Source of the DNA: Halobacteriaceae archaeon
Lineage (GTDB): Archaea > Halobacteriota > Halobacteria > Halobacteriales > Halobacteriaceae
NCBI GenBank assembly: GCA_042216675.1
Contig: JBDGTS010000005.1
Coordinates: 1 to 58,750, forward strand
DNA: 58,750 nucleotides
Reading direction: 5' to 3'
The translations under genes and the position numbers were made by a program. A model generated the notes under the pieces. It did no database searches. It was not told the DNA's origin and saw only the letters and a list, made by a program, of their open reading frames with translations. Of this stretch, positions 3,147 through 44,705 are shown in pieces (position 1 is the first letter of the stretch; each line of letters opens with the position of its first letter).

Positions 3147-3322
3147 CGGGCCGTTAAGCGGCTTCGGCCGCGCGGGAATCGCACCGTTCAGCGGTGCGCG
3201 CGGTGGATTCGCCCACCCCGGCTCGTGGCACCACGTCACACTGGGGCCGATATATTCGCGGCGCCTGATGTGTCATTAATCGCTACTTACTGATTGTCCA
3301 TCCCGTCGTGGCATCTATCACG

Positions 3323-3943: not shown

Positions 3944-4419
3944 CTGCACTCATCAGCGAGGGGCGACCCGCACCGGCGTTCTGTCTCCCGGGCGTGAACG
4001 GTGCCCGCGCGCGCCTCTACCGACTTCGGGACTGCGTCGCCGACGGGCCGGTCCTGCTCGCCTTCGTCCCCGGCGCGGGCGGCCCGTGTTCGCCGACGGC
4101 GGTCGCGGACGCGCTCTCGTGGTTCGCGCTCATCGACGGCGTGACGGCCCTCGTCGTCGCGGACGACCACTACACCGTCCATCGCCGCGAGGGAAGTCAC
4201 CGAACCGGCGCGGCCCCGATTCTCGGCGACGAGGACGCCAGCGTCGGCGCGGTGTACGGCGTCCGGTACGGGGAGGGCGGCGTCGCCGTCTACCTCGTCG
4301 ACGGGAGCCGAACCGTGCGGGGCCGCTGGCGTGCCCCGGACTTCGACGGACTGGACCTGACGGCGCTGAAGGACGCTGCGAAGCGAACCGCGACCCCGGC
4401 TACGGAGACCCATCCATGA
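3940..4419 (+). CDS. Redoxin/AhpC-TSA fold protein with a degenerate active site
   Basis: APAFCLPG, GPVLLAFVP, ILGDEDASVGAVYGV and AVYLVDGSRTVR match the peroxiredoxin-like scaffold; ATGA overlap with the upstream gene. Confidence 0.7.
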   Translation: MTALISEGRPAPAFCLPGVNGARARLYRLRDCVADGPVLLAFVPGAGGPCSPTAVADALSWFALIDGVTALVVADDHYTVHRREGSHRTGAAPILGDEDASVGAVYGVRYGEGGVAVYLVDGSRTVRGRWRAPDFDGLDLTALKDAAKRTATPATETHP

Positions 4420-25377: not shown

Positions 25378-26505
25378 TTAGCCCAGATGCTCCTGCACCG
25401 CCGTCGGGTCGTAGGCCAGCGACAGTTTCCGGGAGCGCCCGCGTCCGTCGAGGCTGACGTAGGTGGCGTCGATGATGCCGACCTGATCGAGTTTGTTGAC
25501 CAACTCCGAGTAGCGCGTGTAGCCCAACTCCGTGCGCTCGTGGAACGCCTCGTACACGTCGCCCGCCCGCTGGCCGTCGTTCTCGGCGACGACCTCGAGG
25601 AGGGCCTGCTCGGAGTCCGAGAGTCCTTCGAGGCGCCGCGAGAGGTGGACGTGCTTGGACTCGGTGTACGCCTCTTCCACGTCGTCGAGGCTCACCTCGC
25701 GCGAGGCGCGCATCTCGGCGTTGAGGCCGGCCCGCCGGAGCAAGTCGATGCCGACGCGGAGGTCACCCGTCTCGGCGGTGAGTTCGGCCACCCGGTCGAG
25801 TACCGTCGTATCCACGACGCCGTCACGAAACCCACGTTCCACCCGGTCCCCGAGGATGTCAGCGATTTCGCGCTCGTCGTACACCTGAAAGTACGCCTCC
25901 TCGGGGCGGAACACGCTCTGCACGCGGCCGTCGAGGGCCTCGATGACGTCCAAGTCGAGGTCCGAGGAGACGACGACGACGCCGACTTTCGCGCCGGGGT
26001 GGGCCTCGTGCGCCCGCAGGAGGGAGTACAGCGTGTCCGAGGCCTCGTTCTCGTAGACGAGGTAGTTCACGTCGTCCAGCGCCACCGTCAGCACCTCGTC
26101 CTCCTCCACCAGTCGCTCGGCCACCTGCGCGAACAGTTTCTTGAAGGAGATGCCGCTACTGGGCGGTTCGTACTCGAAAATCTCCTCGAACAGCCGCGAG
26201 AACACGGCGTAGCGCGTCGAATCCACCTGACAGTTGACGCGGACGGCCCGCACGCCAGACTGGGTGCCGAGTTCCCCGAACAGTTTCTGCACGGCCGTCG
26301 TCTTCCCGGTGCCGGGCGGCCCGCGCACCATCACGTTGAGCGGCCGCGACCCGCGCACCGCCGGCCGGAGCGCGTACTGCAGGGTCTTGACCTGCGACTC
26401 GCGGTGGCGAAACGTCTCCGGAACGTAGTCGATTTCGAAGACGTGTTCGTCGCGGAACACCGATTCGTCCCACGACAGCATCCCCTCTTCGGGGTCCTCT
26501 GCCAT
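25378..26505 (-). CDS. cdc6: Orc1/Cdc6-family replication initiation protein
   Basis: Walker A GPPGTGKT, VNC motif, GDLRVGIDLLRRA, C-terminal winged helix ending GRGRSR. Confidence 0.93.
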   Translation of the reverse strand: MAEDPEEGMLSWDESVFRDEHVFEIDYVPETFRHRESQVKTLQYALRPAVRGSRPLNVMVRGPPGTGKTTAVQKLFGELGTQSGVRAVRVNCQVDSTRYAVFSRLFEEIFEYEPPSSGISFKKLFAQVAERLVEEDEVLTVALDDVNYLVYENEASDTLYSLLRAHEAHPGAKVGVVVVSSDLDLDVIEALDGRVQSVFRPEEAYFQVYDEREIADILGDRVERGFRDGVVDTTVLDRVAELTAETGDLRVGIDLLRRAGLNAEMRASREVSLDDVEEAYTESKHVHLSRRLEGLSDSEQALLEVVAENDGQRAGDVYEAFHERTELGYTRYSELVNKLDQVGIIDATYVSLDGRGRSRKLSLAYDPTAVQEHLG

Positions 26506-26566
26506 CGATGTACCAAGGGGGTGGCGCGCACTTAATGGTTCGCCAGCCTCGGTGAAAGTGGAACGC

Positions 26567-26690
26567 GTGGTCCGGAACGAACGTAGTGAGTGAGGACCAC
26601 GGACTGACGAGCGGGGAGCGTTAGCGACCCGCGAGACGCGTGCGAGGCGCGAGCGGAGCGAGCGCCTCGATGGGCGAGCGAGAACCGCCC
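26567..26690. repeat. Array of four short GA-flanked hairpins
   Basis: Stems GTGGTCC/GGACCAC, GCGGG/CCCGC, CGAGGCGC/GCGCCTCG and GGGCG/CGCCC around purine-rich cores such as ACGTAGT, GCGTTAGC, GCGGAGC. Confidence 0.7.
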
Positions 26691-26691
26691 G

Positions 26692-28677
26692 CTAGAACTT
26701 CTCCAACAGCCGGTCGTAGAAGCCGCCCTCGGCGTCAGCGGCCAGTTTCTCGACGATGAGTTCCGGCGTCGAGCGGGCGAGGTGGTCTTTCACGGGCGAC
26801 CGCTCGACGACGAGGGTGCCGTCCTCCAGCCCCTTCGCCCGGATGCCGTCCACCGTCACGTCGAAGCCCGCGGCGTGGCGAATCTCGCCCGCGAGGTGCG
26901 AGACGATGACGGCGGTGTCGCCCGACTCGTGGAGGGCCTCCAAGATGCCGGCGACGATGCGGGCGCTGGCCCCGGGTTCGGTGATGCTCTCCAGTTCGTC
27001 CACGAGGACCAGTTTCGTCGCGTCGCCGCTGGCTACGTCCGCGAACTGCCGGAGCGTGCTCTCGAAAGCGCCCGCGTCGAGAGTGCCCTGCGTCTTCGCG
27101 TGGTAGTGCAGTTCCTCTACTTCCGGCACCCGCGCGTCGTCGGCGGGCACGGGGAGACCCATGTGCGCGAGGACGACGACGGCGGCCACCAAGTCGAGCG
27201 TGGACGTCTTGCCGCCGCTGTTGACGCCCGAGAGGAGTGCCGGCCCCTCGACGGCGTAGTCGACTGGCTCTACTTCCTCGGGTGGCACGTCTAGCAGGGG
27301 CGAGCGGCCGCCCTCGATGGCGAAGCCCTCGCCGCCGATGGCCGGCATCGTGCAGTCGAAGTCGCGGGCGAAGCGCGCGATTGCCAACTCCACGTCGCGT
27401 TCGAGTGCCCGGCGCACCAGTTCCGTGGCGCCCTCGCGCATCCCCGCGAGGTCCGTCGCCAACTCCCGCTTGCGGCGCGCGGCGCGCCGGTCCCGGGCGG
27501 CGGTCAGTTCCTCGCGGAGGCGGGACACGGCGTCCGCGTCGTGCTCCACGGGATACGTCGGCTCGTCGGTGAACGCTCGCTCCGCGAGGTCGGCCTCCCC
27601 CTCTTTCAGGTCGAGGGCGTCCACGACGTGGCTCCGGGCCGCCTGCACCGCGGCGGCGTACTCGTCGGCGAGTTCGCGCGAGAGCAGGGAGTCCACGCCC
27701 GCGCCGCGTTCGACCAAGGAGAGCAGGTCCGCGCCCTCGATGGTCACGTCCCGCTCCCGGATGGCGTCGGTGAGGCGGTCCTCGGCCACGGACTCGGCGG
27801 TGGCGACGACGGCGTCGAGGTCGTCGGCGGCGTCGGTGAGGCGGTCCAGTTCGTCGTCGCCCACCACCGTTCCGTCGTCGGCGAGGCTGTCGAGGGCCGA
27901 ATCGAGGCGGTCCACGTCCATCGGGGTCTCCATCCCCGCCGCGCGGTGGACGGCGACGGCGGCCCGGATGCGATCGCGGTTCGCCGCGAAGAAGGCGAGC
28001 GTTCGCTCGGGCACCACTTCTGCCGGCGCGTCGAGCGCGTCGGGGCGCACGCGGACGTCGCCCTCTACGTCGACGCCCGCGAACGCCTCGTCGAGTGCGA
28101 CGACGGTGCTGTAGCCGCGCGCCAACTCCGCGAGGTCGCGGGCATCTTCGACGATTTCGACGCTCACCTCCGGAATCTCGTTCTGGGCGCGAGCGTACCG
28201 CTCCGCGTCGGTCGTCGCGAGACAGCGGTCCCGCACCTGCACGTCGTCGGGCGCGTCGAGGGGCGCGACGCCATCTAGCGCCTCCAACACGGCCGGGTCG
28301 GGGTCGCGCGCCGCCGCTCGCTGGGCCATCTCGCGGACCTCCGACACCCGCGAGGCGACGCCGCTCGGGTACAGCGTCTCCAACCGGCGCGCGGCGTACT
28401 CCGTCACCGCGCGCTCTTGGACGAGTTCGAGGACGCGCTCGTGGATTTCGCGGGCGCGGGGCGTGGCGAGGAAGCCCCCGGGGTCGTCGTGGCGGGCGCG
28501 GATGGCGCCGCGCGCGATGCGGGCCGCGCGCCCCGGCGAGACGCCCGGCGCGCGGGAGAGTTCGGCCACGTCCCCGTGGCGGAGCGCCCTCTCGGGGTCC
28601 GAGAGTTCGCGGAGCGCCGTCGCCGTCTTGGCGCCGACGCCCGGCACCGCCTCCAGTTCGAGGTCCTCGCGCTCCAT
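26692..28677 (-). CDS. mutS5: MutS-related ATPase (MutS5 type, N-terminal HhH)
   Basis: VPGVG and APGVS HhH motifs, Walker A GVNSGGKT, AGAFES, VDELESITE, VSH. Confidence 0.9.
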   Translation of the reverse strand: MEREDLELEAVPGVGAKTATALRELSDPERALRHGDVAELSRAPGVSPGRAARIARGAIRARHDDPGGFLATPRAREIHERVLELVQERAVTEYAARRLETLYPSGVASRVSEVREMAQRAAARDPDPAVLEALDGVAPLDAPDDVQVRDRCLATTDAERYARAQNEIPEVSVEIVEDARDLAELARGYSTVVALDEAFAGVDVEGDVRVRPDALDAPAEVVPERTLAFFAANRDRIRAAVAVHRAAGMETPMDVDRLDSALDSLADDGTVVGDDELDRLTDAADDLDAVVATAESVAEDRLTDAIRERDVTIEGADLLSLVERGAGVDSLLSRELADEYAAAVQAARSHVVDALDLKEGEADLAERAFTDEPTYPVEHDADAVSRLREELTAARDRRAARRKRELATDLAGMREGATELVRRALERDVELAIARFARDFDCTMPAIGGEGFAIEGGRSPLLDVPPEEVEPVDYAVEGPALLSGVNSGGKTSTLDLVAAVVVLAHMGLPVPADDARVPEVEELHYHAKTQGTLDAGAFESTLRQFADVASGDATKLVLVDELESITEPGASARIVAGILEALHESGDTAVIVSHLAGEIRHAAGFDVTVDGIRAKGLEDGTLVVERSPVKDHLARSTPELIVEKLAADAEGGFYDRLLEKF

Positions 28678-28719
28678 CGCTCGGGTGGAGTCGTCGGGCG
28701 GACAAAAACGCACCGGGCC

Positions 28720-31706: not shown

Positions 31707-32128
31707 TGTTCTCGCCGGCCGAGCGCGCCTTCGTCGAGGGCGCGCGGGTCGCCCGCCTCGCCACCGCCGACGGCGAGGGGCGCCCCCACGCCGTGCCGGT
31801 CTGTTTCGCGTTCGTCGACGAGCGCATCGTCTCGCCCGTCGACGAGAAACCCAAAGCCGCCGCGCCGGACTCGCTCCGCCGCGTTCGCGACGTGCGCGAG
31901 AACCCGCGGGTGTCGCTCGTCGTCGACCGCTACGCCGAGGACTGGGCCGAACTCGGCTGGGTGCAGGTGCGGGGAACCGCCGCCGTCGTGAACCCGGACG
32001 AGTCGGCCCACGGCACGGCGGTGTCGGCGCTCCGCGAGAAGTACGACCAGTACGCAGACCACGCCCTCGACGCGCGGCCGCTCCTCCGCATCGACCCCGG
32101 CCACGTCGTCTCGTGGGGACGCCTCTAA
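31706..32128 (+). CDS. PPOX-class probable F420-dependent oxidoreductase
   Basis: ARLATAD, PHAVPVCF, VDEKPK, NPRVSLVVDRY.EDW, LREKY.QY. Confidence 0.88.
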   Translation: MFSPAERAFVEGARVARLATADGEGRPHAVPVCFAFVDERIVSPVDEKPKAAAPDSLRRVRDVRENPRVSLVVDRYAEDWAELGWVQVRGTAAVVNPDESAHGTAVSALREKYDQYADHALDARPLLRIDPGHVVSWGRL

Positions 32129-33363
32129 GCCCGCGCGAGGCGCTCGCGACCCCGCCTAGTCCACTTCGCCAACTGGAGTGTGCCCTCGAACAGCCCGATC
32201 ATCGTCGCGGTGAGGATGAACGGTGCCATCCCCGTCGGGTCCGGGCTGAACAGCATCGAGACGCCGAGGAAACTCCCCCAGAAGAGGAGGCGGCGCTGTG
32301 CCAACCACTCTCTGGTCACCAGTCCCATCATCAGCGCGAGCATGATGAACAGCGGAATCTGGAAGATGATGGCGAGCGCTCCCAACAGGACCAGAATCAA
32401 ATCGAAGGTGCGCCCGAGAGCGAACGCGATGGCGGCCACGTCCTTCGAGTAGGAGTAGAAGTACGTGAAAATCGTCGGCAGCATCACGAAGTAGCCGAAG
32501 ACGAGACCGACGAACGCGAGGACGAGGCTGGTCGGGACGGCCGCGAGGTAGTAGCGCCGCTCGTGGGGGTAGAGCCCGGGGCGCATGAACCGGTAGCTCT
32601 GGTACACCAGCACTGGCAGCGCCACGACGACGCCCGCGAGACTCGCCACCTTGATCTGGGTGATGACGAGTTCGAGTGGGCTGTAGAGGCGAGGGCGCGT
32701 CTCGACGCCGGGGAGTGAGGACTCCCAGAGCAGATTGATTATCTCCTCGCCGAAGGGGAACGCGGCGACGCTCACCACGGAGACGACGACCATCACGACG
32801 AGCGTTCGCTGGAGCAGCTCCTCGATGTGGGCGGTGAGCGGCAGTTCCTGGTCCTCGCGCGGCCCCCCACCCGAGTCGCCGTCGTCCGCCGGTTGCGCGA
32901 GGTCGTGGTCCGGGTCGCCGGTCACGGTGTCGGCGCTGTCGAAGTCTGCGTTTGCGCCGCCACTTGCCTCCCCGTCGTCGTTCTCGCCCCCGGCGCCGGC
33001 ACGCCCGTCACCGGCGTACTCCGCCTCGACGGCGTCGTCGAGGGGATGCTCCGGGAACAGGTTCGGCCCGTCGTCTTCGGACTCGGCGTCGTCGGCGTCG
33101 GAATCAGCGTCGTCGCTCTCTCCTTCGGGCGCGCCTTCTTCCGCGTCGTCGGTCGCGTCGTTCTCGCCGGGCGCGTCATCCTCGTCGCCGTCGTCGTCGG
33201 CCTTCGCTTCGGGCGCATCGGCGTCCTCAGCATCGTCGTCGGAAGCCGACGACGCGGTGCCGTCGGGCGTTTCGGGCTCGGGGACGTCGTCGCCGTCGCG
33301 CCCGGCGGCGTCGTCGCTGTCGCCGTTCGCTTCGGGCGTACCGGTCTCGTCCCCGTCGCCCAT
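32125..33363 (-). CDS. tatC: Twin-arginine translocase TatC (single unit, long acidic N-terminus)
   Basis: PLTAHIEEL, FMRPGLYPHERR, FQIP, SPDPTG; six TM helices. Confidence 0.93.
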   Translation of the reverse strand: MGDGDETGTPEANGDSDDAAGRDGDDVPEPETPDGTASSASDDDAEDADAPEAKADDDGDEDDAPGENDATDDAEEGAPEGESDDADSDADDAESEDDGPNLFPEHPLDDAVEAEYAGDGRAGAGGENDDGEASGGANADFDSADTVTGDPDHDLAQPADDGDSGGGPREDQELPLTAHIEELLQRTLVVMVVVSVVSVAAFPFGEEIINLLWESSLPGVETRPRLYSPLELVITQIKVASLAGVVVALPVLVYQSYRFMRPGLYPHERRYYLAAVPTSLVLAFVGLVFGYFVMLPTIFTYFYSYSKDVAAIAFALGRTFDLILVLLGALAIIFQIPLFIMLALMMGLVTREWLAQRRLLFWGSFLGVSMLFSPDPTGMAPFILTATMIGLFEGTLQLAKWTRRGRERLARA

Positions 33364-33458
33364 CTCGCTGTCGGATAACCGAGACGCGATTATAGGCCTT
33401 TTGACCCCGCGCCCCGGTGAGAAGATTGATAACCGCGAAACCGACTACATCCGTGAAG

Positions 33459-35543
33459 ATGGACGAGGACGCGGCCCGTGCGTTCCAGAGCGGGCGGGAA
33501 ACCGCCGGTGCCTTTCTCTCGACGCTCCAGTCACACCTTCAGCACGTGTTCATCGCGTTCGTCGTGGGGCTGTTGGGGGGCATCCTCGCGATGCGCCTCT
33601 TCGTCTGGCCCACGCTGGAGGCGGACCTCCGCATGGAGGGCGTCCGCATCATCACGCAGACTCCCTTCGACGTCATCCTCCTGCAGGTGAAAATCGGGCT
33701 GATAATCGGTGCGCTCGTCGCCGTGCCCGTGTTGCTGTTCTCCGCCCGCGAGGAACTGGGCAAGCGCGGCCTCATCAACAACATCCCCGTCGCCCGCTGG
33801 AAGGTGGTGGGGGTCGTCGTCGCCGCCATCGGCCTGTTCCTCCTCGGTGCGCTGTACGCCTACTACCTCTTCTTCCCGATAATGTTCGACTTCCTCGCCA
33901 ACAACGCCCAGCAGGCGGGGCTGGCGCCGCACTACTCTATCGTCTACTGGACCCAGTTCATCCTCGTGTTGGGCATCTCCTTCGGCCTCGCGGCTCAACT
34001 TCCGCTCGTGATGTCGGCGCTCGCGTACAGCGGCGTCGTCCCCTACGAGGTGTTCCGCGACAACTGGAAGTACGCCGTCGTCATCATTTTCGTCTTCGGC
34101 GGCGTCGCGTCCCCGCCCGACCCGTTCACGCAACTGCTCTGGGGCCTGCCGCTGGTGAGTCTCTACGGCATCAGCCTCTACATCACGAAAGTCATCGTGA
34201 CGATGAAGCGCGGCGGCGCCGACGTGAGCCCTCGCGGACTGGCGCGCCGCCACTGGAACCACGCCCTCGGCGCGGCCGTCCTCGGCAGTCTCGCCGGCTA
34301 CGCCTTCGCCGTCACGGGCGGCCTCACCGCCGTCGACGACGGCCTTCGGGCCATCGGCTCCGCCTATCGCTTCGGCGGCACAGAGCCGTGGGCCGTCGCC
34401 GCGTTCGTCGGCGTCCTCGCGTTCGTGTTCACGGTCCTCGTCGTCGTGTATCGGGCCGTCGCCGTCGCGTCGAAGGCCCAGCGCTCGGGCCGCCCCGGTG
34501 CTATCGACCTGCGCGAACTCGACGAGGCGGGCGTCCGCGCGGCGCCCGACGAGGCGTTCGCCGACCTCTCGGAGGACGAGGCGCTCGCCATCGCCAACGA
34601 CGCCCTCGAAGCGGGTGACGAGGAGAAGGCGGGCGCGGTCCTCGACCGGTTCGACGAGGTGGAAGCCAAGGCCGAGGCGGAAGCCGAGGGCGAGGGTGAG
34701 GGCGAGGCCGAGGAGGGCGGCGTCGTCTCGCAGACGGCCGCCGGCGTCGCCGACGCCTTCACCGACGAGGAGACGACGGAGGAGGACATCGGCGGCTACT
34801 ACTACGACCTGCGCTTCGTCCTCGACAGCGTCCGGTCGAGCCTGTTCCGCATCTTCGCCGTCTTCCTCTTCACGATGGGGGCCTCCTTCTACTGGCTCTA
34901 CTCCGGCGGCATCGGCACCATCCGGCGGGACTTCCTCGCCCGCCTGCCCGAGGGCGTCCGCACCCAGAGCCCCCTCGAAATCATCACGCTCCACCCCGTG
35001 GAGGCGCTGGTGTTCGAGGTGAAGGTGAGCGTCCTGTTCGGGGCCGTCGTCGCCCTGCCGATGGTCGTCTACGCCGCCTTCCCGGCGCTGAAGGACCGCG
35101 GCGTCGCCGGCGGCAGTCGCCGCACCGTCGCCGTCTGGGGCGTCGCCACGCTCCTCGGCCTGTTCGGGGGCCTCGCGCTCGGTTACGCCTACGTCGCGCC
35201 CTCCATCATCTCGTGGCTGGTGTGGGACGCCCACCTCGCGGACATGGTCATCACCTACCGCGTGAAGTCGTTCTTCTGGCTCGTCATCCTCACGACGGCG
35301 GGCATCGGCTTCCTCGCGGACGTCCCCATCTCGATGCTCCTGTTCCACCGCGGGGGAATCGTGCGCTATCCGGCGATGCGCCGACGCTGGCGGGAGTTCG
35401 CCATCGGCACGTTCGCGTTCGCCGCCGTGTTCACGCCGGACAGCCTCTACACGATGTTCGTCATCGCCGTCCCCGTCGTGGCCGCGTACTTCATCGGCCT
35501 CGGCGTCCTGTGGCTGGTGACCCTCGGCGGGCGTCGGGCGTGA
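33459..35543 (+). CDS. tatC: Twin-arginine translocase TatC, tandem-duplicated form
   Basis: Two TatC units (TPFDVILLQVK...SPPDPFTQ and LHPVEALVFEVK...FTPD) joined by an acidic linker. Confidence 0.92.
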   Translation: MDEDAARAFQSGRETAGAFLSTLQSHLQHVFIAFVVGLLGGILAMRLFVWPTLEADLRMEGVRIITQTPFDVILLQVKIGLIIGALVAVPVLLFSAREELGKRGLINNIPVARWKVVGVVVAAIGLFLLGALYAYYLFFPIMFDFLANNAQQAGLAPHYSIVYWTQFILVLGISFGLAAQLPLVMSALAYSGVVPYEVFRDNWKYAVVIIFVFGGVASPPDPFTQLLWGLPLVSLYGISLYITKVIVTMKRGGADVSPRGLARRHWNHALGAAVLGSLAGYAFAVTGGLTAVDDGLRAIGSAYRFGGTEPWAVAAFVGVLAFVFTVLVVVYRAVAVASKAQRSGRPGAIDLRELDEAGVRAAPDEAFADLSEDEALAIANDALEAGDEEKAGAVLDRFDEVEAKAEAEAEGEGEGEAEEGGVVSQTAAGVADAFTDEETTEEDIGGYYYDLRFVLDSVRSSLFRIFAVFLFTMGASFYWLYSGGIGTIRRDFLARLPEGVRTQSPLEIITLHPVEALVFEVKVSVLFGAVVALPMVVYAAFPALKDRGVAGGSRRTVAVWGVATLLGLFGGLALGYAYVAPSIISWLVWDAHLADMVITYRVKSFFWLVILTTAGIGFLADVPISMLLFHRGGIVRYPAMRRRWREFAIGTFAFAAVFTPDSLYTMFVIAVPVVAAYFIGLGVLWLVTLGGRRA

Positions 35544-35757: not shown

Positions 35758-36442
35758 GTCGCCCCTGCCCGTGGGGTCGGTGGCGCTCGTCGCCCTGTTC
35801 GTCACCGCGCTCGTGACGGCGCAACTCACCGCGTCGAAACTGCTGCTCTTCGAGTTGCCAGTCTCGCTCCCCGTGACCGGGGCGTCGCTCGTCATGCCGG
35901 GTGCGGCACTGGCGTACGCGCTCACCTTCTTCGCGTCGGACTGCTACTCGGAACTGTACGGTCGGCGGGCCGCCCAGACGCTCGTGAACGTCGGCTTCGT
36001 GATGACGCTCGTGATGCTGGCGCTGGTCTACACCACCATCGAAGCGCCCATCGCCCCGTTCTCGGAGATCGGGCAGGCTGAGTTCAGCCGCGTCCTCTGG
36101 TCGAGTGCCAACATCGTCGCCGGCAGTCTGCTCGCGTACCTCGTCAGTCAGAACTGGGACGTGGTGGCGTTCCACGCCATCCGGCGGCGCACCGGCGAGG
36201 CGCACCTCTGGCTCCGCAACATCGCGTCGACGGCGACCAGTCAGGCCATCGACACCGTCATCTTCGTCACCGTCGCGTTCTCGGTCGCCCCGGCGCTGTT
36301 CGGCGTCGGGACTGCCTACGGCGTCGATCAGATACTGTCGCTCATCGTCGGCCAGTACGTCCTCAAACTCGGCATCGCGGTCCTCGACACGCCGTTCGTG
36401 TACGGCCTGACGCGGCTGTTCGGGACCTCCGAGGCCCGCTAA
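35747..36442 (+). CDS. Queuosine-precursor transporter family protein (YhhQ/Vut_1)
   Basis: TASK, SDCYSELYG, GSLLAYLVSQNWDV, WLRNIAST..SQAIDT, DTPFVY. Confidence 0.9.
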   Translation: MRAESPLPVGSVALVALFVTALVTAQLTASKLLLFELPVSLPVTGASLVMPGAALAYALTFFASDCYSELYGRRAAQTLVNVGFVMTLVMLALVYTTIEAPIAPFSEIGQAEFSRVLWSSANIVAGSLLAYLVSQNWDVVAFHAIRRRTGEAHLWLRNIASTATSQAIDTVIFVTVAFSVAPALFGVGTAYGVDQILSLIVGQYVLKLGIAVLDTPFVYGLTRLFGTSEAR

Positions 36443-37197
36443 TCGCGGCGCTCGGTGAAGCCAAAGCGCGGCTTCACGTCCTCGACGCGCACGTCCACTT
36501 CGTCGCCGGGGTCGGCGTCGGGCACGAACAGCGTGTAGCCCTCGACGTAGGCGATGCCGTCGCCCTCCTCGCCCTCGCGTTCGACGTCGACGGTGAGTTC
36601 GTCGCCGGCGCGGACCGGCGCCGTGAGATACCCCTTGGCGACGAGGTACAGTTCGGAGGACGCGTCGCGGGACGCCTCGGGGCGCACCTCGCGGACGTAC
36701 TCGAACGTCTCCTCTAAGTCCTCCCGAAGGGCGGCGACGTCCTGTCCGTCGAACACCTTCGCGGCGAAGTCGCCGCCGGCCTCCAGTAGTTCCTCGGCCG
36801 TCTCGAAGGCCTGCCGCGCGAGGTGGACCGAGCGCGCGTGGTCCACGTTGTACTCGCCGGTCATGTTCGGTGCCATGTCCGAGAGCACCGTGTCCGCCGC
36901 GCCGACGGCGTCGCGGATGCGCTCGCGGGTCGCCTCGTCGGTGATGTCGCCGCGAATCGTCTCGACGCCGTCGATGGCCTCGATGCGCTGGCGGTCCACG
37001 CCGACGACGCGCCCGCCCTCGCCGACTCGCTCGGCGGCGACCTGAAGCCACCCGCCGGGGGCGGCCCCGAGGTCCACCACCGTCGCGCCGTCGCTCAACA
37101 GGTCGGCCGTCTCGTCCAGTTGCTGAAGCTTGTAGGCCGAGCGGGCGCGGTACCCTTCCTGCTTCGCTCGGTTGTAGAAGTCGTCTTTCCCACTCAT
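36439..37197 (-). CDS. rlmE: 23S rRNA 2'-O-methyltransferase RlmE with a C-terminal TRAM domain
   Basis: YRARSAYKL, DLGAAPGGW, SDMAP, SSELY, then GEEGDGIAYVEG. Confidence 0.95.
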   Translation of the reverse strand: MSGKDDFYNRAKQEGYRARSAYKLQQLDETADLLSDGATVVDLGAAPGGWLQVAAERVGEGGRVVGVDRQRIEAIDGVETIRGDITDEATRERIRDAVGAADTVLSDMAPNMTGEYNVDHARSVHLARQAFETAEELLEAGGDFAAKVFDGQDVAALREDLEETFEYVREVRPEASRDASSELYLVAKGYLTAPVRAGDELTVDVEREGEEGDGIAYVEGYTLFVPDADPGDEVDVRVEDVKPRFGFTERRD

Positions 37198-37313
37198 GGC
37201 GGTCAGAAGGGGACCCACGCGAAAACGGCTTTCGCTGTCGCCCTCGCGCGCGTCGCGCGCGCGAACCCGATTCACCGACGTTTTTATAGGGTGGGGGAGT
37301 AAGTCGGAGCAAG

Positions 37314-38057
37314 ATGTTCAAGGCGATTGTGAGCGCGGACACGCTCCAGGACGCCCTCGACTCCGTCAGCGTTCTCGTTGACGAATGCAAGATCAATCTC
37401 GACGAGGAGGGCCTCGCCATCCGGGCGGTCGACCCCGCCAACGTCGGGATGGTGGATCTGGAACTGTCCGCGGACGCGTTCGAGTCCTACGAGTCCGACG
37501 GCGGCCTCATCGGCGTCAACCTCTCCCGACTGGAGAGCATCGCCGGCATGGCCGACGCCGGACAACTCGTGGACCTCGAACTCGACGAGGAGACGCGCAA
37601 GCTCCACATCCGCATCGACGGGCTGGAGTACACGCTGGCGCTCATCGACCCCGACTCCATCCGCGACGAGGCCGACCTGCCGGACCTCGACCTCCCGGCG
37701 GAGTTCGTCATCGAGGGCGCCGACATCGACCGCTCGGTCACCGCCGCCGACATGGTGTCCGACCACATCGCACTCGGCGTCGACGCCGACGCCGAGCAGT
37801 TCTACGTCGAGGCCGAGGGCGACACCGACGACGTCCACCTCACGCTGGGCCGCGACGACCTCATCTCCCTCTCCGCGGGCGACGCACACTCCCTGTTCTC
37901 GCTCGACTACCTCAAGGACATGAACAAGGCCATCCCGAAGGACGCCGAGGTGACTGTCGAACTCGGCGAGGAGTTCCCGGTCAAGATGCACTTCGAGTTC
38001 GCCGAGGGGCACGGCCACGTCACCTACATGCTCGCGCCGCGCATCCAGAGCGACTGA
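37314..38057 (+). CDS. pcn: DNA polymerase sliding clamp PCNA
   Basis: [31 protein letters not shown]; TTTTTATA box at about 37280. Confidence 0.98.
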
Positions 38058-38098
38058 ACGCGGAAAACCCTTTGAGGCCCCGCGGAGACTGACCGCTA

Positions 38099-40165
38099 AT
38101 GAGCGACGAGGCCGACGGCGCTGACCGGCGAATCGTCGTCGGGACGGGGCGGGACCTCGACAAACAGGACCGCTACGAGGTCACGAAACACGTCGCCCGC
38201 GACTGGGACGTGTGGAAACTCTCGCTTCTGGGCCCGGTGCTCTGGAGCGCGGTCCGCCTGCTCGTCCTCGGCGGGACCCTCCTCTACGTCGCCTACTCCC
38301 TGCAGGGCTACGGCTCGGACCTCGCGCTCCTCATCGACTCGGTGGCCGCCGTCTCCGCCGCCGACGTGGGGCGCGGCGTGCGCGCGCACTCCGTCGCGGT
38401 GCTCCTCGGGGCCACGCTCGGGAGTTGGATTCTCTACCGCGTGATGCTCGCTCTGCAGGGGCTCCTCGGCGACATCGGTTCCCAGCTGCGGACCGCGGGC
38501 CACCAACTCCGGCATCTCGCGGTGCTCTTCGACCTCGACACGTGGCTCCCGCAGAACTACTGGTACCCGTTCACGTCCCACCTGTCCGACCGCGACCCGC
38601 TCGTCGTCCTCTCGAACGCGGACCTCGACGCCGCCGTGAGCGGCGCGTACGTCGATATCCCCTACTACAAGAACGTCTTCGTCGACGCCGTCTACGTCCG
38701 GTTCGAGGGGCTGTCGCCGGGCCGGCGGTTCGAACTCTGGTGGTTCGGGTACCGCGTCACGCTCGGCCGTCGCCTCGTCGCCGTGGCCCTCCTCGGGGTG
38801 GTGCTGGTGGGCCGACTCGACGGCGTCGCGCTGACGGCCGCCCTCGCGTGTCTGCTCGGCGTCGCCGCCGTCATCTGGTTCTCCGTCTCCGCGCTCCCGG
38901 CCGCGGCGGCTGTCGTCACGGCTGTCGTCGCGGCCACAGCGTGGCCCGTCCCGCTCTCCGTCGCCGCCGGTCCGACGTGGACGGCGCTCGAAACGGCGAG
39001 CGTCGCGGGCCTCGCCCTCTACGTCGTCGCCGCGACGGCGTTCCGATACGTGCGCTTCCACCGCCGCTTCTACGGCAACTCCGCCGGCTTCTCCCGGTTC
39101 GGGACGCTCACTGGCGACGAGGAGACGGCGCTGTTCGGCGACGACGCCGCCGAGCGACTGGGGAACTCGCTTGTCGGCTACGGCATCTTCTACGTCAGCG
39201 AGTTCCTGTGGAGCGTCGTCGGCGACCGCTCCTACCACGTCGAGACGGCGGCGAGCGCCGACGACCCGTTCCGCGCCGCGGCTGCCGACGCCGGCACGGA
39301 CCTCCTCCGGTCCGCCGCGCCGCGCCCCCACCGCACCGAGGAGGAGTCCGACGTGACCGCGACTGTCGCTGGCGTGGACTTCGTCCGACACGACTGGAGC
39401 CCACACTGGCGCGACTCCCTCTCCCCCGGGCGGCCCCGCACCGCCAGCCTCGGCGACGGCGACGACAGGGTCGTGGACCGCGTCGGCGACGCGCGCGGCG
39501 TCCGCCTCCCCGTCAAGCGCTTCGTCAGCGTGCCGTGGTGGGCCGCCGGCGACGCGACCCTCGACGAGGGCCCCGACTTCTACTTCGACGCGGCGTGGCG
39601 CGACGAGGAGGTCCACTACCTCCTCCTCGGCGGCGCCGAACATCAGGAGGGGCTGGTCGCGTTCATCCGCTATCTCAAGTCACAGGGGTACGAGAACGTC
39701 GACCTGTTGGAGAACGCGTTCGCCGACGAGGGCGACCTGAAGTTCGTCTCGGAGTACTTCGTCTCCTCGGTCATCCGCGGCGACGAGGACTTCCGGGGGG
39801 ACGCCGACGAGAACGTGTTCCTGTTCCTCAGACACCGCATCGCCGATGACCCCGAGCGCTGGGTCCACGTGCTCTACGGGATGGGGGCGCTGGAGAGCAA
39901 GATGGGCTTTCTGTACTGGTACGACGCCTTCGCGGACTCGGGGTTCGACGGCGAGGCGGACGTGCTCTACCGCGTCTCCTACACGCAAGCGGGCATCGAC
40001 GACGTGGGGGACCTGTACACGGACCCGGACTGGTGCCGGGACGGCCCCCACGAAGTCGACTTCGACTGGACGGCGCCGACCGAATGGCTGGTCGACCCGG
40101 CCGACGACGCCATCGGCTGTGCCGCCGCGGACCTGCACGTCACGGGTGAGTTCGACGATGCGTGA
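38099..40165 (+). CDS. Uncharacterised 688-aa multi-pass membrane protein with a soluble C-terminal region
   Basis: Long ORF with host-like codon usage; about six hydrophobic segments in the first 320 aa; acidic, aromatic-rich C-terminal half; GAAAACCCTTTGA BRE/TATA-like element upstream. Confidence 0.85.
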   Translation: MSDEADGADRRIVVGTGRDLDKQDRYEVTKHVARDWDVWKLSLLGPVLWSAVRLLVLGGTLLYVAYSLQGYGSDLALLIDSVAAVSAADVGRGVRAHSVAVLLGATLGSWILYRVMLALQGLLGDIGSQLRTAGHQLRHLAVLFDLDTWLPQNYWYPFTSHLSDRDPLVVLSNADLDAAVSGAYVDIPYYKNVFVDAVYVRFEGLSPGRRFELWWFGYRVTLGRRLVAVALLGVVLVGRLDGVALTAALACLLGVAAVIWFSVSALPAAAAVVTAVVAATAWPVPLSVAAGPTWTALETASVAGLALYVVAATAFRYVRFHRRFYGNSAGFSRFGTLTGDEETALFGDDAAERLGNSLVGYGIFYVSEFLWSVVGDRSYHVETAASADDPFRAAAADAGTDLLRSAAPRPHRTEEESDVTATVAGVDFVRHDWSPHWRDSLSPGRPRTASLGDGDDRVVDRVGDARGVRLPVKRFVSVPWWAAGDATLDEGPDFYFDAAWRDEEVHYLLLGGAEHQEGLVAFIRYLKSQGYENVDLLENAFADEGDLKFVSEYFVSSVIRGDEDFRGDADENVFLFLRHRIADDPERWVHVLYGMGALESKMGFLYWYDAFADSGFDGEADVLYRVSYTQAGIDDVGDLYTDPDWCRDGPHEVDFDWTAPTEWLVDPADDAIGCAAADLHVTGEFDDA

Positions 40166-40946
40166 CTGTGTGCCGCCAGACGAGGGCGACAGTCTGTTTC
40201 TGTCGGCCACCAGCGTCGTCCACGACCCCGCGGCGGGACGCTGGGACGTGTACGTGGACCCGGAGGACTGTCTGGTCGCCCTCGACGGGGACCGGCGGCA
40301 CCCGTCGATTGACTCGCTGGGTCCCGACGATGTGACCGTCGCCGAGACCGAGGGCCGGCGGCGCTACGAGGGCCGCATTCTGCTCGGTGCGGGCGTCGTG
40401 CCCGTGGTCGGCGACGCCGTGCCGCTCATCTTCCGCGACGCCGGCGCGCCGACGAACCCGTTTTGCTGGACCGCGCCCGCTGGGCGCGTGGACGACGACC
40501 CCGGGACGACGGCGTTCCGGGAGTTCTACGAAGAACTGCTCGTGTTCCGCGACGGGACGCCGGCCTACGTGGACGTGGATGGGGTCGAGATGCGCGACGT
40601 GTACCGGTCGGCCCTCGCCGAGAACGACGTCGACCCCGACGCGCTGACGACGGTGCGCGGGACGGTGCCCGACCGATTCCGGTGTGCCTTCGACACCGTC
40701 GTGACTCATTTTGGCGACCAGCGCATCGAGAGCGAACTCTGGACCGAGTGGATACCCGACGAGCCGTCGCTGGAGTTCCGGACTGCCGTGGAAATCGACG
40801 CAGATCCGAGTCGGCTCACGTTTCGCGACGGCGAACTCGACCGTTGTGTCGAGTTGTTTCCGACCGCCGAACTGGCGTCTCTTCCGGCGGCGCTGTTCGT
40901 CCCCGGCTTGGCGGCGTTCCGCGACGACTTCTTCGCGACGGAGTGA
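40158..40946 (+). CDS. Divergent Nudix-like hydrolase
   Basis: LIFRD...WTAPAGRVDDDPGTTAFREFYEELL resembles a shortened Nudix box; ATG 40158 overlaps the upstream gene by 8 bp. Confidence 0.65.
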   Translation: MRDCVPPDEGDSLFLSATSVVHDPAAGRWDVYVDPEDCLVALDGDRRHPSIDSLGPDDVTVAETEGRRRYEGRILLGAGVVPVVGDAVPLIFRDAGAPTNPFCWTAPAGRVDDDPGTTAFREFYEELLVFRDGTPAYVDVDGVEMRDVYRSALAENDVDPDALTTVRGTVPDRFRCAFDTVVTHFGDQRIESELWTEWIPDEPSLEFRTAVEIDADPSRLTFRDGELDRCVELFPTAELASLPAALFVPGLAAFRDDFFATE

Positions 40947-40984
40947 CCGGGCGATTTATCGGCCGCGACCGATAACCCAGCCCC

Positions 40985-42055
40985 ATGCGTCCGCTCCACG
41001 CCCGCTACCCCTTCCTGTCGAGCGCTCGCGACGCCGTCGCGGAGGCGGGCGTGGATCTGTCGGCTGTCGTGGAGTCCGACGACCCGGCCGTGGACCGCGC
41101 CGTCGAACGCGTCACGAACGCCGTCGCGGACGGCACCGTCGGCGACTCTCACCGCGACACCCGCACCGAACTCGTCTCCTACCCCGTCGCGCGCGTCCTC
41201 GTCTCCCTCGTCGACCAACCGGCGCTGACGCGGCGCTACGCCCACGCCGAGGCCGAGACAGCCTATCACCGCTTTTCAGAGGAACTGAGCGCCGACGAGC
41301 CGGAACTCAGGAGCGTCGAGACGGAGCGGCTGACCCTCGACGCCCTGCTGTCGGAGTTCGACTTGAGCGACGACGTGACCGACGTCGCCGACGGCTTCGA
41401 GGTGGACGTGGTGGCCTACCTCCAACACGCCGCGGGCCTGCGCGGTGACGAGTGGCGCCTCGTCAACCGCGACCTGACGGCGGGCCGCGTCCCCGTCGAC
41501 CGCGCGGAGCTGTACCGCCTGCTCCAGCAAGCCGTCCATCAGCGAATCGAGGACGGCCTCCCGCTCTCCGTGCCCGAGGCCATCGCGGCGCACCTCGACG
41601 ACGAGGTGGCCGAAATCGAAGCCGTCCTCGACGAACTCGACCTGACCCGCGAGATAGACACCGTGGTGCCCGAGTTGTTCCCGCCCTGTATGCAGGCGCT
41701 CCTCGATCAGATTCAGAAGGGCGAACACCTCGAACACCACTCCCGCTTCGCCATCACCTCCTTCCTGACGAGCATCGGGCTGACGACGGACGAAATCGTG
41801 GACCTGTACGCCATCAACCCCGGGTTCGGCGAGGAGATGACCCGCTATCAGACCGACCACATCCGCGGGGATTCCGGGCCGACGGACTACACGCCGCCCT
41901 CCTGTGCGACGATGAAGTCCTACGGCGACTGCGTGAACATGGACGACCTCTGCGACGCCATCTCGCACCCGCTCTCGTACTACGAGGTCAAACTCGACGA
42001 CGCCGACGAGGACGAACTCGAAGACTGGCGAGAGCGAGAGGAGAGCGAGGCGTGA
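40985..42055 (+). CDS. priL: DNA primase large subunit
   Basis: ARYPF, SYPVAR, WRLVNR, FPPCM, RYQ..HI, YTPPSCATM, HPLSYY. Confidence 0.96.
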   Translation: MRPLHARYPFLSSARDAVAEAGVDLSAVVESDDPAVDRAVERVTNAVADGTVGDSHRDTRTELVSYPVARVLVSLVDQPALTRRYAHAEAETAYHRFSEELSADEPELRSVETERLTLDALLSEFDLSDDVTDVADGFEVDVVAYLQHAAGLRGDEWRLVNRDLTAGRVPVDRAELYRLLQQAVHQRIEDGLPLSVPEAIAAHLDDEVAEIEAVLDELDLTREIDTVVPELFPPCMQALLDQIQKGEHLEHHSRFAITSFLTSIGLTTDEIVDLYAINPGFGEEMTRYQTDHIRGDSGPTDYTPPSCATMKSYGDCVNMDDLCDAISHPLSYYEVKLDDADEDELEDWREREESEA

Positions 42056-42090
42056 CTGGAAGAAACGCCTCGCTCCCCAAAATCGGTCGC

Positions 42091-42303
42091 TCAGTCCCGC
42101 GAGAGCCACACGCCCAGCAGCGACATCAGCAGGACGAACCCGGCGATGGCCGCGACCAGTCCGTAGGCGCCCGTCGCCTGTAGCAGTTGGCCGCCGTCCG
42201 TGGGCGTCTCGGTGTACTGGACCCCGATGACGAACGCGGCGGCGACGAAGAGGAGGACGCCCCCGATTCCGACAGCAGTTTCTTCTAACGCGTCACGCTC
42301 CAT
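42091..42303 (-). CDS. Small two-TM membrane protein
   Basis: 70-aa C-terminal part of ORF 42091..42846 from ATG 42303; two hydrophobic helices. Confidence 0.75.
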   Translation of the reverse strand: MERDALEETAVGIGGVLLFVAAAFVIGVQYTETPTDGGQLLQATGAYGLVAAIAGFVLLMSLLGVWLSRD

Positions 42304-42384
42304 AGCCCCGGATTTCCGTCGCCGCCGCAAAAGCGTGTCGGAGGCCGGCGACGGACTGAAATGTGTCGTTCCCCTACCGACAGT

Positions 42385-43020
42385 ATGAGCGAAATCGCAC
42401 CCGAGCGCCGGGCGCTCCGACCTGACGACGGCGGGGACAGCCGCGCCGCCCGCGCCCGCTCGGAACCGATGGCCGTCGTCCCGCTCGGGGGTGGCCGCTA
42501 CGACGTCGTCACCGGCGACGACACCGCCTACACCGTCGACGTGCGGGCCGGCCGGTGCACCTGTCCCGACCACCGCCACCGCGATGCGCGCTGTAAGCAT
42601 CTCCGTCGGGTCGCCCTCGACGTGACCGAGAACCGCGTGCCCGCGCCGGACGAACGGGCCGCGGCGTGTGCGGCCTGCGGCGACACGACGTTCGTCGCCC
42701 GCGAAACGGCGGCCCCCGTCTACTGTGCGGACTGCACGCTCGCACCCGGCGACTTCGCCGTGGACGAGGCGACGGACGACCTGTTGGCCGTCGTGCGGAC
42801 GACGGACCGCCGCGCCGACGAGACGCCGATTCCGGGCACGGGCCACACCGTCGCCTCCTACCCGGGCAACAGCGACTACGAGGACGCTGACGCCGTCGTC
42901 GAGGCCGTGTATCCGGTGCCGGCCGACCCCGAGAGAGTCAGCGCGCGGCCCCCGACGGTGTACTCGTTCCCGCGGGGGCGCCTGCGCCGCGCCGGCGTCA
43001 CTCCACGTCGTCGAGCGTGA
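42385..43020 (+). CDS. SWIM zinc-finger protein
   Basis: CTCPD...CKH SWIM motif, CAAC and CADC pairs, YSFPRGRL terminus. Confidence 0.85.
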
Positions 43021-43423
43021 CCCGTTCCGAGTCGCCGACGAGTTCCGCGAAGTCCGTGCCGTCCGCCAGCGCCGTCTCCTTCTTGACGCGGTAGTTGCCG
43101 CCGTCGGTCGTGTACAGGTCGCCGGGGTGGAAGAAGTACCAGTCCTCCCGGTCGAAGCGCACGGCGATGCGCGCCTTCGCCCCGAAGTTCCGGGCGAAGT
43201 AGACCAGCGCCTCCACCTCCTCGCCGGTGAGGTAGATGGGGTCGCCCGACGAGGACTTGGCCTCGATGGCGTAGAACGTCCCGCCGTCGCCCGCCAGCAC
43301 GTCCGGCAGTTCGCGGTCCGTCGCGGCCCCGGAGGCCGGCGCGCGCATCACGGCGAAGCCGGCCTCGTCGAGTGCGTTGACGAGTTCGCGCTCCCGCCGG
43401 TCGCCCTTGCGGTTGCTCGACAT
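42998..43423 (-). CDS. hjc: Holliday junction resolvase Hjc
   Basis: [26 protein letters not shown] (PD-ExK). Confidence 0.96.
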
Positions 43424-43424
43424 C

Positions 43425-44705
43425 TCAGGTCCCGTGGTCCCACGAGTCCATGTACTCGCGCTGGTCGCCGCTCAGGCCGTCGATGTCGACGCCCTCGGCG
43501 TCGAGTTTGATCTCGGCCACCTCGCGGTCCAAGTCGTCGGGCACCTCGTGGACGCTCGCGTCGTAGGCGTCGGGGTTCTCCGCGAGTTCGCGGACGCAGG
43601 CCGCCTGCACGCCGAAGGACTGGTCCATGACCTCCACCGGGTGCCCCATCGCGACGGGGCTCGCGAGGTTGACCAGACGCCCCTCCGCGAGGACGTTGAT
43701 GCGGCGGCCGTCGGGGAGTTCGTACTCCTCGATGCCGTCCCGGACCTCGGTCACGGACTCGGCCATGGCTTCGAGTTGGTCGAGGTTGATCTCCACGTCG
43801 AAGTGGCCGGCGTTGGCGAGGACGGTACCGTCGGCCATGTCTTCGAAGTGCTCTCGGGTGATGACGTCGCGGTTGCCCGTCGTCGTGAGGAACACGTCGC
43901 CCTCGCTGGCGGCGTCGGCCATCGGCATGACCTCGTAGCCCTCCATGTGCGCTTCGAGGGCGCGGCGGGGGTCCACCTCGGTGACGATGACGTCGGCGTT
44001 CTGGCCGGCGGCCTTCTTGGCGACGCCGCGGCCGCAGTAGCCGTAGCCGGCGACGACGACGGTTTTGCCGGCCCACGAGAGGTTCGTCGTCATCGCGATG
44101 TTGGCGAGCGAGGACTCGCCGGTGCCGTGGACGTTGTCGAAGAGACGCTTCATCGGCGTGTCGTTCACGGCGAACATCGGATAGTCGAGCGCGCCGTCGC
44201 GGTCCATCGCCCGCAGGCGGTGGACGCCGGTGGTCGTCTCCTCACAGCCACCCTTGATCGAGTCCAGCAGGTCCCGATGCTCCTGATGGATGCGGAACAC
44301 CATGTCGCCGCCGTCGTCGACGGTGATGGTCGGTTCGTGGTCGATGACGGCCTCGATGGCCTCGTAGTACGCCTCGTCGTCGACGCCGTGGCGGGCGTAG
44401 GAGGTGATGTTCTCCTGTGCGTCGAGCGCCGCGCTCACGTCGTCGTGCGTCGAGAGCGGGTTACAGCCGGTGACGGCCACCTCGGCCCCGGCGGCGGCCA
44501 GCGTCTCCACCAGCACCGCCGTCTTCGCCTCGACGTGCATCGCCATGCCGACGACTTCGCCGGCCAGCGGTTGCTCCTCGCGGAAGGTGTCGGCCATCTC
44601 CGGCAGAATCGACATGTGCTCGCGGGCCCACGCGATTTTCTTCTCGCCGTCGGCCACCAGTTCGTCGCCGTCAGAAAGCGCGTCGCGCGCCGTCGCCGCG
44701 GTCAT
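43425..44705 (-). CDS. ahcY: Adenosylhomocysteinase family (SAH/SIH hydrolase)
   Basis: [62 protein letters not shown]. Confidence 0.96.

Follow-up and report, generated by a model that had tools for sequence, protein, structure and literature searches.

Type III CRISPR systems pair signal-degrading enzymes with membrane effectors (CorA with NrN or a SAM-AMP lyase; Cam1). For Cam1 and Csx23, the effect on the membrane is described as depolarisation (PMC13276650). A related combination, membrane helices with a Nudix domain, is described for effectors of cyclic-oligonucleotide-based antiphage signalling systems (CBASS): the CBASS membrane effector Cap16 stays toxic when its NUDIX domain is mutated (PMC10419184), and the 2TM-NUDIX protein associated with UG23 reverse transcriptases is interchangeable with SLATT (PMC9226505). 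A review covers the processing of NAD and ADP-ribose derivatives by Nudix domains in biological conflicts (PMC9503650). Here we analysed 58,750 nucleotides (nt) of a Halobacteriaceae archaeon (GenBank assembly GCA_042216675.1, contig JBDGTS010000005.1, positions 1 to 58,750; hereafter the window), in which two genes, A (38099-40165, forward strand, 688 amino acids, aa) and B (40158-40946, forward strand, 262 aa, ATG at 40158), lie between the replication genes pcn and priL. Gene A is delimited by its open reading frame (ORF), its GC content at third codon positions (GC3, 0.94) and profile searches, and its product is predicted to be anchored in the membrane and to belong to an undescribed superfamily; for gene B, Pfam, alignment, a structural model and Foldseek predict a divergent protein of the Nudix fold that carries a beta extension at its N-terminus. 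The best-supported point of the analysis, and a well supported one, is that A and B form a functionally linked, undescribed pair; a role in defence remains a hypothesis.

How the locus compares with these systems can be stated from both sides. Like Cap16 and the SMODS-associated 2TM-NUDIX proteins, in which the Nudix module is swapped between partners, it combines a Nudix with transmembrane helices, and three relatives described below (P0076, P0079 and P0080) hold helices and Nudix in one chain. Unlike the 2TM-NUDIX proteins, the window has its helices and its Nudix on separate proteins, A adds ~450 conserved, predicted cytoplasmic residues that have no assigned fold, and in P0076 and P0079 the Nudix stands N-terminal to the helices. 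CBASS also differs in its genetic surroundings. No CD-NTase/SMODS cyclase was found by Pfam in 15 Natronomonas ORFs around homologous loci or in 40 of the 50 window ORFs, which had been called by a GC3-based caller and of which these 40 were scanned throughout. PADLOC models, including those for CBASS effectors of the Cap16 type, matched 0 of 2 window proteins and 0 of 8 relatives at an expect value (E) <= 1, and the SLATT/S-2TM/S-4TM models of Pfam matched neither A (E <= 1) nor any of 53 relatives (E <= 0.01). A first-pass annotation of the window had pointed to membrane-plus-Nudix combinations in CBASS, which are in print (PMC9226505, PMC10419184), and had held that this locus, having no recognisable cyclase, is not canonical CBASS; the searches for a cyclase and for effector models both agree with it. 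The resemblance to CBASS membrane-Nudix proteins is one of theme only. With the type III CRISPR membrane effectors the locus would share, by analogy only, the placing of an enzyme that could destroy a nucleotide ligand beside a membrane protein that binds the ligand through a cytoplasmic domain, whereas CRISPR, CARF or cyclase context and detected sequence similarity are all lacking; the likeness to toxin-antitoxin systems lies in the overlapping two-gene layout alone. A word search of the literature, covering listings and abstracts, returned no description of the pair, which is weak evidence for a sequence family that cannot be found by words.

Linkage of the two genes

Both genes lie on the same strand in 2.85 kb, flanked by pcn (37314-38057; Pfam PCNA_N and PCNA_C), whose stop lies 41 nt 5' of A, and by priL (40985-42055; Pfam DNA_primase_lrg), whose start lies 38 nt 3' of B. 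The stop of A and the start of B overlap by 8 nt (ATGCGTGA, 40158-40165, forward strand), which implies translational coupling of the two genes. The coordinates and the Pfam assignments of the flanks agree on this point with the first-pass annotation, which had described two same-strand genes with an 8-bp overlap between pcn and priL. The 41-nt spacer between pcn and A (38058-38098, forward strand) carries an element resembling a TFB-recognition element and TATA box (BRE/TATA-like, GGAAAAC..CTTTGAG at 38061-38076, ~28 nt 5' of the A start codon) and is the putative own promoter of A, from which the transcript would probably be leaderless. A separate TATA-like element, ATTTAT, lies 26-31 nt 5' of the priL start; both elements had been proposed before and are recognised here by eye. 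A 7-bp inverted repeat, TTATCGG-N6-CCGATAA (40954-40975), overlaps the ATTTAT before priL and could be a regulator site or a hairpin that terminates the A-B transcript.

In DNA as GC-rich as this, long spurious ORFs abound, and the open frames of A and B might in principle be chance frames or decaying pseudogenes. An antisense ORF of 515 aa (38096-39643, reverse strand) spans most of gene A and is typical of GC-rich DNA; considered as a gene, it was judged spurious by codon-position GC. The GC3 values of A (0.94) and B (0.86) are instead close to those of the neighbouring genes (0.87-0.96), conserved relatives exist, the reading frames are intact in all copies, and the ratio of nonsynonymous to synonymous substitution rates (dN/dS) between the two Natronomonas copies described below amounts to 0.145 (A) and 0.234 (B), as against 0.06-0.12 for three neighbouring genes. 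Because codon-position GC is neighbour-like, relatives are conserved and dN/dS is well below 1, A and B are genuine genes, and we give practically no weight to the chance-frame explanation, which is already refuted.

Scanning 185,579 species genomes with the B alignment gave 71 pattern matches, of which two loci were confirmed, in Natronomonas sp. CBA1123 and N. gomsonensis; the scan patterns are strict (window B fits one of two), so that divergent copies may be missed, and the window's own genome was not found in the collection. In both loci, an A homologue ~48% identical to window A is located directly 5' of B, with ATGAATGA at the A/B junction; if B started instead at an in-frame ATG located 6 nt further 5', the overlap would be 14 nt. 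The two Natronomonas loci are near-duplicates (A 97% identical, neighbours alike), and A adjoins B with an ATGnnTGA overlap in three of three DNA contexts, two of them independent. Occurrence of one gene apart from the other, named in the first-pass annotation as evidence against its proposal, was not seen in these three DNA contexts. Two further A/B pairs can be inferred from A and B sequences on contigs of equal size (3975 and 3719). Across five pairings, the pairwise identities of A and of B are correlated with r = 0.93 (10 comparisons), in a sample in which two pairings are those inferred from equal-sized contigs and two are near-duplicates.

The two genes are also found fused. In the 895-aa protein P0076, aa 12-132 fit the B-family profile (40.9 bits, E 4e-13), including the N-terminal extension specific to B, and aa 264-858 make up a full A-type part (203.9 bits with the A-like profile); P0076 is the sole B-profile match among 60 A-like proteins. 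Its architecture recurs in P0079 (51% identity to P0076), which is cut off by the end of its contig. The fusions come from two distant relatives, read as AT-rich from their amino-acid composition. A third protein, P0080 (582 aa), carries a B-type Nudix with the N-terminal extension behind an unrelated two-helix module and ~250 residues that match no family, and therefore the B-type Nudix has more than one membrane partner and behaves as a swappable module. Adjacency in all three contexts, co-divergence and fusion in two distant relatives together favour the undescribed two-gene system that had been proposed from the window, and neither gene matches a housekeeping family in the Pfam, NCBIfam, PADLOC, PHROGs and PDB searches.

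The Natronomonas loci further separate the pair from its present neighbours. When 10 window proteins were tested in these loci, A and B alone were present; PCNA, PriL, FtsJ, Vut_1 and Hjc were all missing. The neighbours there are helix-turn-helix (HTH) regulators, HalOD1, Usp, an AI-2E transporter, a Na/Ca exchanger, CDC48 and Lhr, and in Natronomonas sp. CBA1123 A follows a spacer of ~260 nt with a BRE/TATA-like CGAAACGTTTTTTC ~30 nt 5' of its start. This bears directly on the idea of a MutT-like nucleotide-sanitising function, linked to replication and recruited to the pcn-priL interval. The shared orientation and short spacers between PCNA and PriL are compatible with such a function, and the Foldseek rows listed for the B model include MutT and NUDT15, but Foldseek does not discriminate between Nudix subfamilies, an obligatory membrane partner and fusions are unlike a soluble sanitising enzyme, and the Natronomonas pair is not near pcn or priL. 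With that last observation the idea is largely refuted, and we regard it as very improbable.

The pair is rare (two loci in 185,579 species genomes), as is the A family, for which a profile search run exhaustively over 1.84 billion representatives recovered 56 clusters at E <= 1e-3 and 18 at E <= 1e-30, the 18 all aligning along the greater part of their sequence. Of the genus Natronomonas, with 10 named species at NCBI, only N. gomsonensis and the strain sp. CBA1123 gave a locus, which suggests a patchy distribution within the genus, provided that the other species are in the scanned collection. Nine of nine tblastn searches of plasmids (72,556) and phages (50,697) with A, B, P0076, P0041 (a distant A relative) and P0080 came back blank. 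Since it is rare and occupies a different neighbourhood in Natronomonas, A-B is, as had been supposed, an accessory module and not a core gene of the pcn-priL locus, and the contexts compared show the pair to be inherited and relocated as a unit. Upstream of the Natronomonas pair, the gene of RdfA (rod-determining factor) adjoins that of a 650-aa AAA_23/SMC-like coiled-coil ATPase (2505-5248, reverse strand, in the first locus, L001, and the same place in the second, L002).

Protein families of A and B

Against Pfam NUDIX (PF00293), B scores 17.1 bits (E 0.0059, aa 78-129), under the gathering score of 21.1; the Natronomonas copy has no Pfam match at E <= 0.001, and B has no match in NCBIfam, PADLOC or PHROGs. 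The distant B-type domains of P0076 (21.3 bits), P0079 (21.8) and P0080 (21.5) lie just over the cut-off of 21.1. An AlphaFold2 model of B from a 17-sequence alignment (A1) has a mean predicted local distance difference test score (pLDDT) of 78.7 and a predicted template-modelling score of 0.76, with a low-confidence loop at aa 94-115. When this model was compared with the PDB by Foldseek, all matches listed (ranks 1-50) were Nudix hydrolases, including DDP1, NUDT15, NUDT5, MutT, Ap4A hydrolase and NudC, with probabilities up to 1.00, target-normalised template-modelling scores up to 0.61 and a best E of 3e-3, none being <= 0.001; in a viral structure library, the named rows were mostly Nudix proteins. 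As predicted from the model, B is a divergent member of the Nudix fold that keeps the acidic triad; the earlier description of B as divergent and Nudix-like, now joined by the sub-threshold Pfam score and the all-Nudix Foldseek rows listed, holds.

The canonical Nudix box has the form GX5EX7REUXEEXGU. The variant box of B (WTAPAGRVD...AFREFYEELLVF, aa 104-130, 40467-40547, forward strand) has a G-to-E spacing of 13 where the canonical spacing is 15, so that its loop is two residues shorter, and Leu stands in place of its final glycine. G109, R110, D112, E122, E125 and E126 do not vary in the 17 aligned sequences. The first-pass annotation had singled out the motif REFYEE; its three glutamates stand, being invariant (17/17), and its arginine does not, since it occurs in the window protein alone (1/17). 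The signature W[ST]..AGR.D recurs in P0076, P0079 and P0080. Compared with ADP-ribose pyrophosphatases such as NUDT5/ADPRase, which also have an N-terminal beta domain, and with MutT and NUDT15, B shares the predicted fold and the three conserved acidic residues of the box helix, and the NUDT5 rows align over 230-239 columns of its 262 residues. Unlike these enzymes, it is set apart by identities of 9-17%, by Foldseek E values of 3e-3 or worse and by a Pfam score below the cut-off, and unlike the canonical Nudix proteins, with their arginine, terminal glycine and box loop longer by two residues, it has the atypical box just described.

Gene A belongs to no described family among those searched. 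It matches no Pfam family at E <= 1 and none in NCBIfam, PADLOC, PHROGs or the PDB, and of 53 relatives scanned with Pfam, one alone reached the curated cut-off, the match being to NUDIX; NCBIfam assigned 0 families to 33 distant A-like members. PDB sequence-profile searches (alignments A3 and A4 and, for B, A1) returned chance-level rows only, and the coiled-coil protein (E 0.01), antibody chains (E >= 0.19) and alginate lyase (E >= 0.78) among them were discarded. No usable match was found in the ESM Atlas with A or with its distant relative P0041, and an AlphaFold2 model of A from seven sequences (pLDDT 40) is unusable. A word-indexed search of 5.8 billion proteins gave 16 relatives of B and, beyond its own cluster, at least six of A, the latter count being a lower bound, as this search scored the 8000 best candidates and missed the N. 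gomsonensis copy. Three resemblances were rejected by eye: the N-terminal G.G..DK has no GK[ST] and is not a P-loop, GG.EH differs from GGDEF in its third residue and has no Pfam match, and the R..H expected of HEPN is unconserved in the distant group.

Kyte-Doolittle hydropathy, the one method applied here to the membrane helices, places peaks at ~aa 41-66 and 96-120 and a hydrophobic block at aa 220-318, which predicts four to six helices and supports the earlier suggestion of a multi-pass membrane protein. Four conserved blocks alternate with these segments, all on the forward strand. The N-terminal block (aa 9-45, 38123-38233, RIVVG.G.DLDK...D.D..KLSLLGP) is defined by alignments A2 and A3 and by hhalign to the distant group of A relatives, and aa 1-43 include eight K/R. 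It is followed by the first hydrophobic helix pair (aa 41-120, 38219-38458), a hairpin common to most of the distant group. Block 2 (aa 145-215, 38531-38743, NYW.PFTSHLSDRDP ... PYY.NVFVD) is given by invariant columns of A2 and A3 and again by hhalign. The second hydrophobic cluster (aa 220-318, 38756-39052), two to four predicted helices, is missing in the distant group, where hhalign places a gap, and varies in length within the halophile family (alignment A2). Block 3 (aa 321-375, 39059-39223, NSAGFS ... NSL.GYG.FYVSEF) is followed by a C-terminal domain (aa 455-688, 39461-40162, G.RLPVKRF.SVP; LLGG.EHQ; LENAF; EYFVS; YGM.A..SK), predicted to be alpha/beta from the pLDDT-40 model only. Judging from its invariant residues in the alignment, which are K473, G511, G512, E514, H515, E538 and N539, the C-terminal domain is likely the ligand-binding or catalytic part of A.

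The relatives of A fall into two groups, labelled halophile-like and AT-rich as read from amino-acid composition. Among the full-length relatives, the 20 closest have an acidic, arginine-rich composition; the other long relatives are lysine-rich and 470-895 aa in length, most of them with a single N-terminal helix pair. At the hydropathy threshold applied, 6 of 33 long distant members (alignment A4) have no helix and a seventh has a C-terminal helix only. The two groups were aligned by hhalign with a probability of 99.94% (E 5e-37) over 452 columns, aa 9-614, skipping the second helix cluster, and common to both are the motifs G...DK...D.D..L (N-terminal), SD, PYY....(I/V)D, (V/L)P.KR..S.P, GG.EH(N/Q), EN.F and YG..A..(T/S)K. 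On this profile comparison, homology between the halophile and distant groups extends over the entire cytoplasmic part. A quick maximum-likelihood tree of 55 rows (leaving out four fragments < 400 aa, P0003, which is identical to A, P0009, truncated P0079 and P0080) unites the halophile-like proteins (SH-aLRT support 99) and places window A with Natronomonas-type sequences (100); deeper placements are unsafe because of long branches. One A relative, P0037, has an insertion at aa 692-740, within the C-terminal domain, that resembles HNH_repeat, a homing-endonuclease-associated repeat (24.9 bits, cut-off 26).

Proposed mechanism and competing roles

As a plausible mechanism, we propose that A-B is a self-contained, translationally coupled accessory operon in which the Nudix protein keeps the product or ligand of A in check; as the best explanation of the whole, we put its probability at about 0.5. 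All conserved blocks of A (N-terminal, 2, 3 and the C-terminal alpha/beta domain) would face the cytoplasm, and the helices would serve as a membrane anchor only. The blocks adjoin K/R-rich loops, for which reason, on crude hydropathy, they are read as cytoplasmic and the helices as anchor. Their varying number (0, 2 or 4-6) is the reason for preferring an anchor to a pore. The suggestion in the first-pass annotation of a membrane sensor or effector, if understood as a pore-type one, is weakened by this variation and by the conservation of the cytoplasmic blocks. The cytoplasmic domain of A may bind, make or use a small molecule linked to a nucleoside diphosphate (NDP), in a binding or catalytic pocket formed by the invariant residues K473, E514/H515, E538/N539 and K601. 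In contact with A or in its vicinity, B would hydrolyse the same molecule or a by-product as a Mg-dependent pyrophosphatase, and could thereby act as the off-switch that holds the product or ligand of A in check. The purpose of the module is weakly suggested to be a response to stress or conflict, in the manner of abortive infection.

Several observations weigh against this proposal. With a model at pLDDT 40 and blank Atlas and PDB searches, A has no fold or family match, and because of this lack we purely infer its ligand binding or catalysis. The box of B is atypical in its short loop, its arginine (1/17) and the loss of its final glycine, and B could serve in binding instead of catalysis. 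Fused A-B is found in 2 of the 62 A-like proteins examined. The codon usage of A and B is native, without a sign of recent arrival, and their dN/dS is just slightly higher than that of the neighbours. Nothing at the loci is specific to conflict: both contexts are without defence genes, PADLOC matched 0 of 10 proteins, and plasmids and phages were blank.

The same evidence has to be set against the reading of A-B as antiviral signalling or abortive-infection defence, in which A, an effector or sensor in the membrane, would bring about death or arrest of the cell and the Nudix would be its regulator or a second effector. Such a role is a possibility that we entertain tentatively. It would fit a pair that is rare, patchy and relocated as a unit, membrane-plus-Nudix architectures are described in CBASS (Cap16, and the UG23-associated 2TM-NUDIX; PMC10419184 and PMC9226505), and the B-type Nudix is swappable, as its fusion behind the unrelated two-helix module of P0080 indicates. 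However, the pair and its scanned neighbours contain no cyclase, CARF, SAVED, SLATT or PADLOC model, neither of the two independent contexts, in the window or in Natronomonas, is a defence island with known defence genes among the neighbours, tblastn found no plasmid or phage copies, and the unconserved number of helices is a better fit to an anchor than to a pore. A bolder form of this idea, which we consider rather unlikely, is that A-B is an unrecognised, self-sufficient nucleotide-based immune or abortive-infection module shared by haloarchaea and unrelated AT-rich prokaryotes, in which A is a membrane-tethered sensor or enzyme of new fold and a dedicated clade of B-type Nudix proteins gates it through destruction of its nucleotide ligand.

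A lineage-specific metabolic or envelope role must be considered alongside these. Here, A would be a membrane-bound enzyme with an NDP-sugar, a nucleotide-activated lipid or a cofactor precursor as its substrate, and the Nudix would clear the nucleotide by-product. The conserved polar residues of the cytoplasmic domain of A suggest an enzyme, NDP-sugars are among the many NDP-linked compounds on which Nudix enzymes act (PMC9503650), the Natronomonas neighbours are transporters and stress regulators, and purifying selection and native codon usage are compatible with such a function. Yet the extreme rarity and the scatter over acidic halophile-like and K-rich groups are unusual for a metabolic step, no biosynthetic genes are linked to the pair in either context, and A has no similarity to known transferase or hydrolase families. 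We regard this niche role as doubtful and, at the same time, as a serious rival to the proposal of a Nudix that restrains the product or ligand of A.

Surroundings of the pair and significance

The Pfam-matched neighbours in the window are housekeeping and replication genes: the small and large subunits of RFC, Orc1/Cdc6, a MutS-like protein, two tatC, Vut_1, FtsJ-TRAM, Hjc, AdoHcy hydrolase, TBP, two tRNA synthetases, eIF1A, RIO1 and a thermosome subunit. Signs of a mobile element were sought at the A-B locus as flanking repeats, an integrase or transposase, a tRNA target and deviant composition, and none was found there. No meaningful repeats flank the pair, the Pfam-scanned ORFs include no integrase, transposase or defence family, the sole tRNA in the window lies at 51195, 10 kb from the pair, and base composition does not deviate (GC 0.66-0.74). 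The repeat search and the Pfam scan thus agree with the earlier statement that transposases and terminal repeats are missing. Rfam gave 0 matches in the window at 36000-43500.

Several further features of the window were recorded. It is unusually rich in replication genes (RFC small and large subunits, PCNA, PriL, Hjc and Orc1), and at 25378-28713 (reverse strand) orc1/cdc6 adjoins the gene of an HHH and MutS_V protein, making this region a possible replication-origin neighbourhood. The first-pass annotation had described pcn and priL as close neighbours in other haloarchaea and had read the pair as an insertion between them; the comparison made for this covers the locus tags of Haloferax volcanii, where PCNA is HVO_0175 and PriL HVO_0173 (PMC7776575). 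Downstream of priL, a 219-aa ORF (42361-43020, forward strand) has a weak SWIM zinc-finger match (16.7 bits, cut-off 19.6) and a Zn-ribbon-like stretch, and its 3' end overlaps the convergent hjc by 23 nt. Two divergent tatC genes are located at 32125-35543, the second of which (33417-35543) encodes a 708-aa double-TatC fusion.

If the pairing reflects a real mechanism, it would join a new protein superfamily to a dedicated Nudix clade, the two acting together at the membrane. It would provide an archaeal example of a theme, a nucleotide-processing enzyme with a membrane protein, that has so far been seen mainly in bacterial CBASS and CRISPR accessory genes, and, should the nucleotide-based immune reading be true, a signalling system without any known cyclase. 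If A-B instead performs a niche metabolic step, its interest would be limited to the annotation of ~50 orphan families. The pair is small and haloarchaeal genetics are at hand, which would make these possibilities easy to test.

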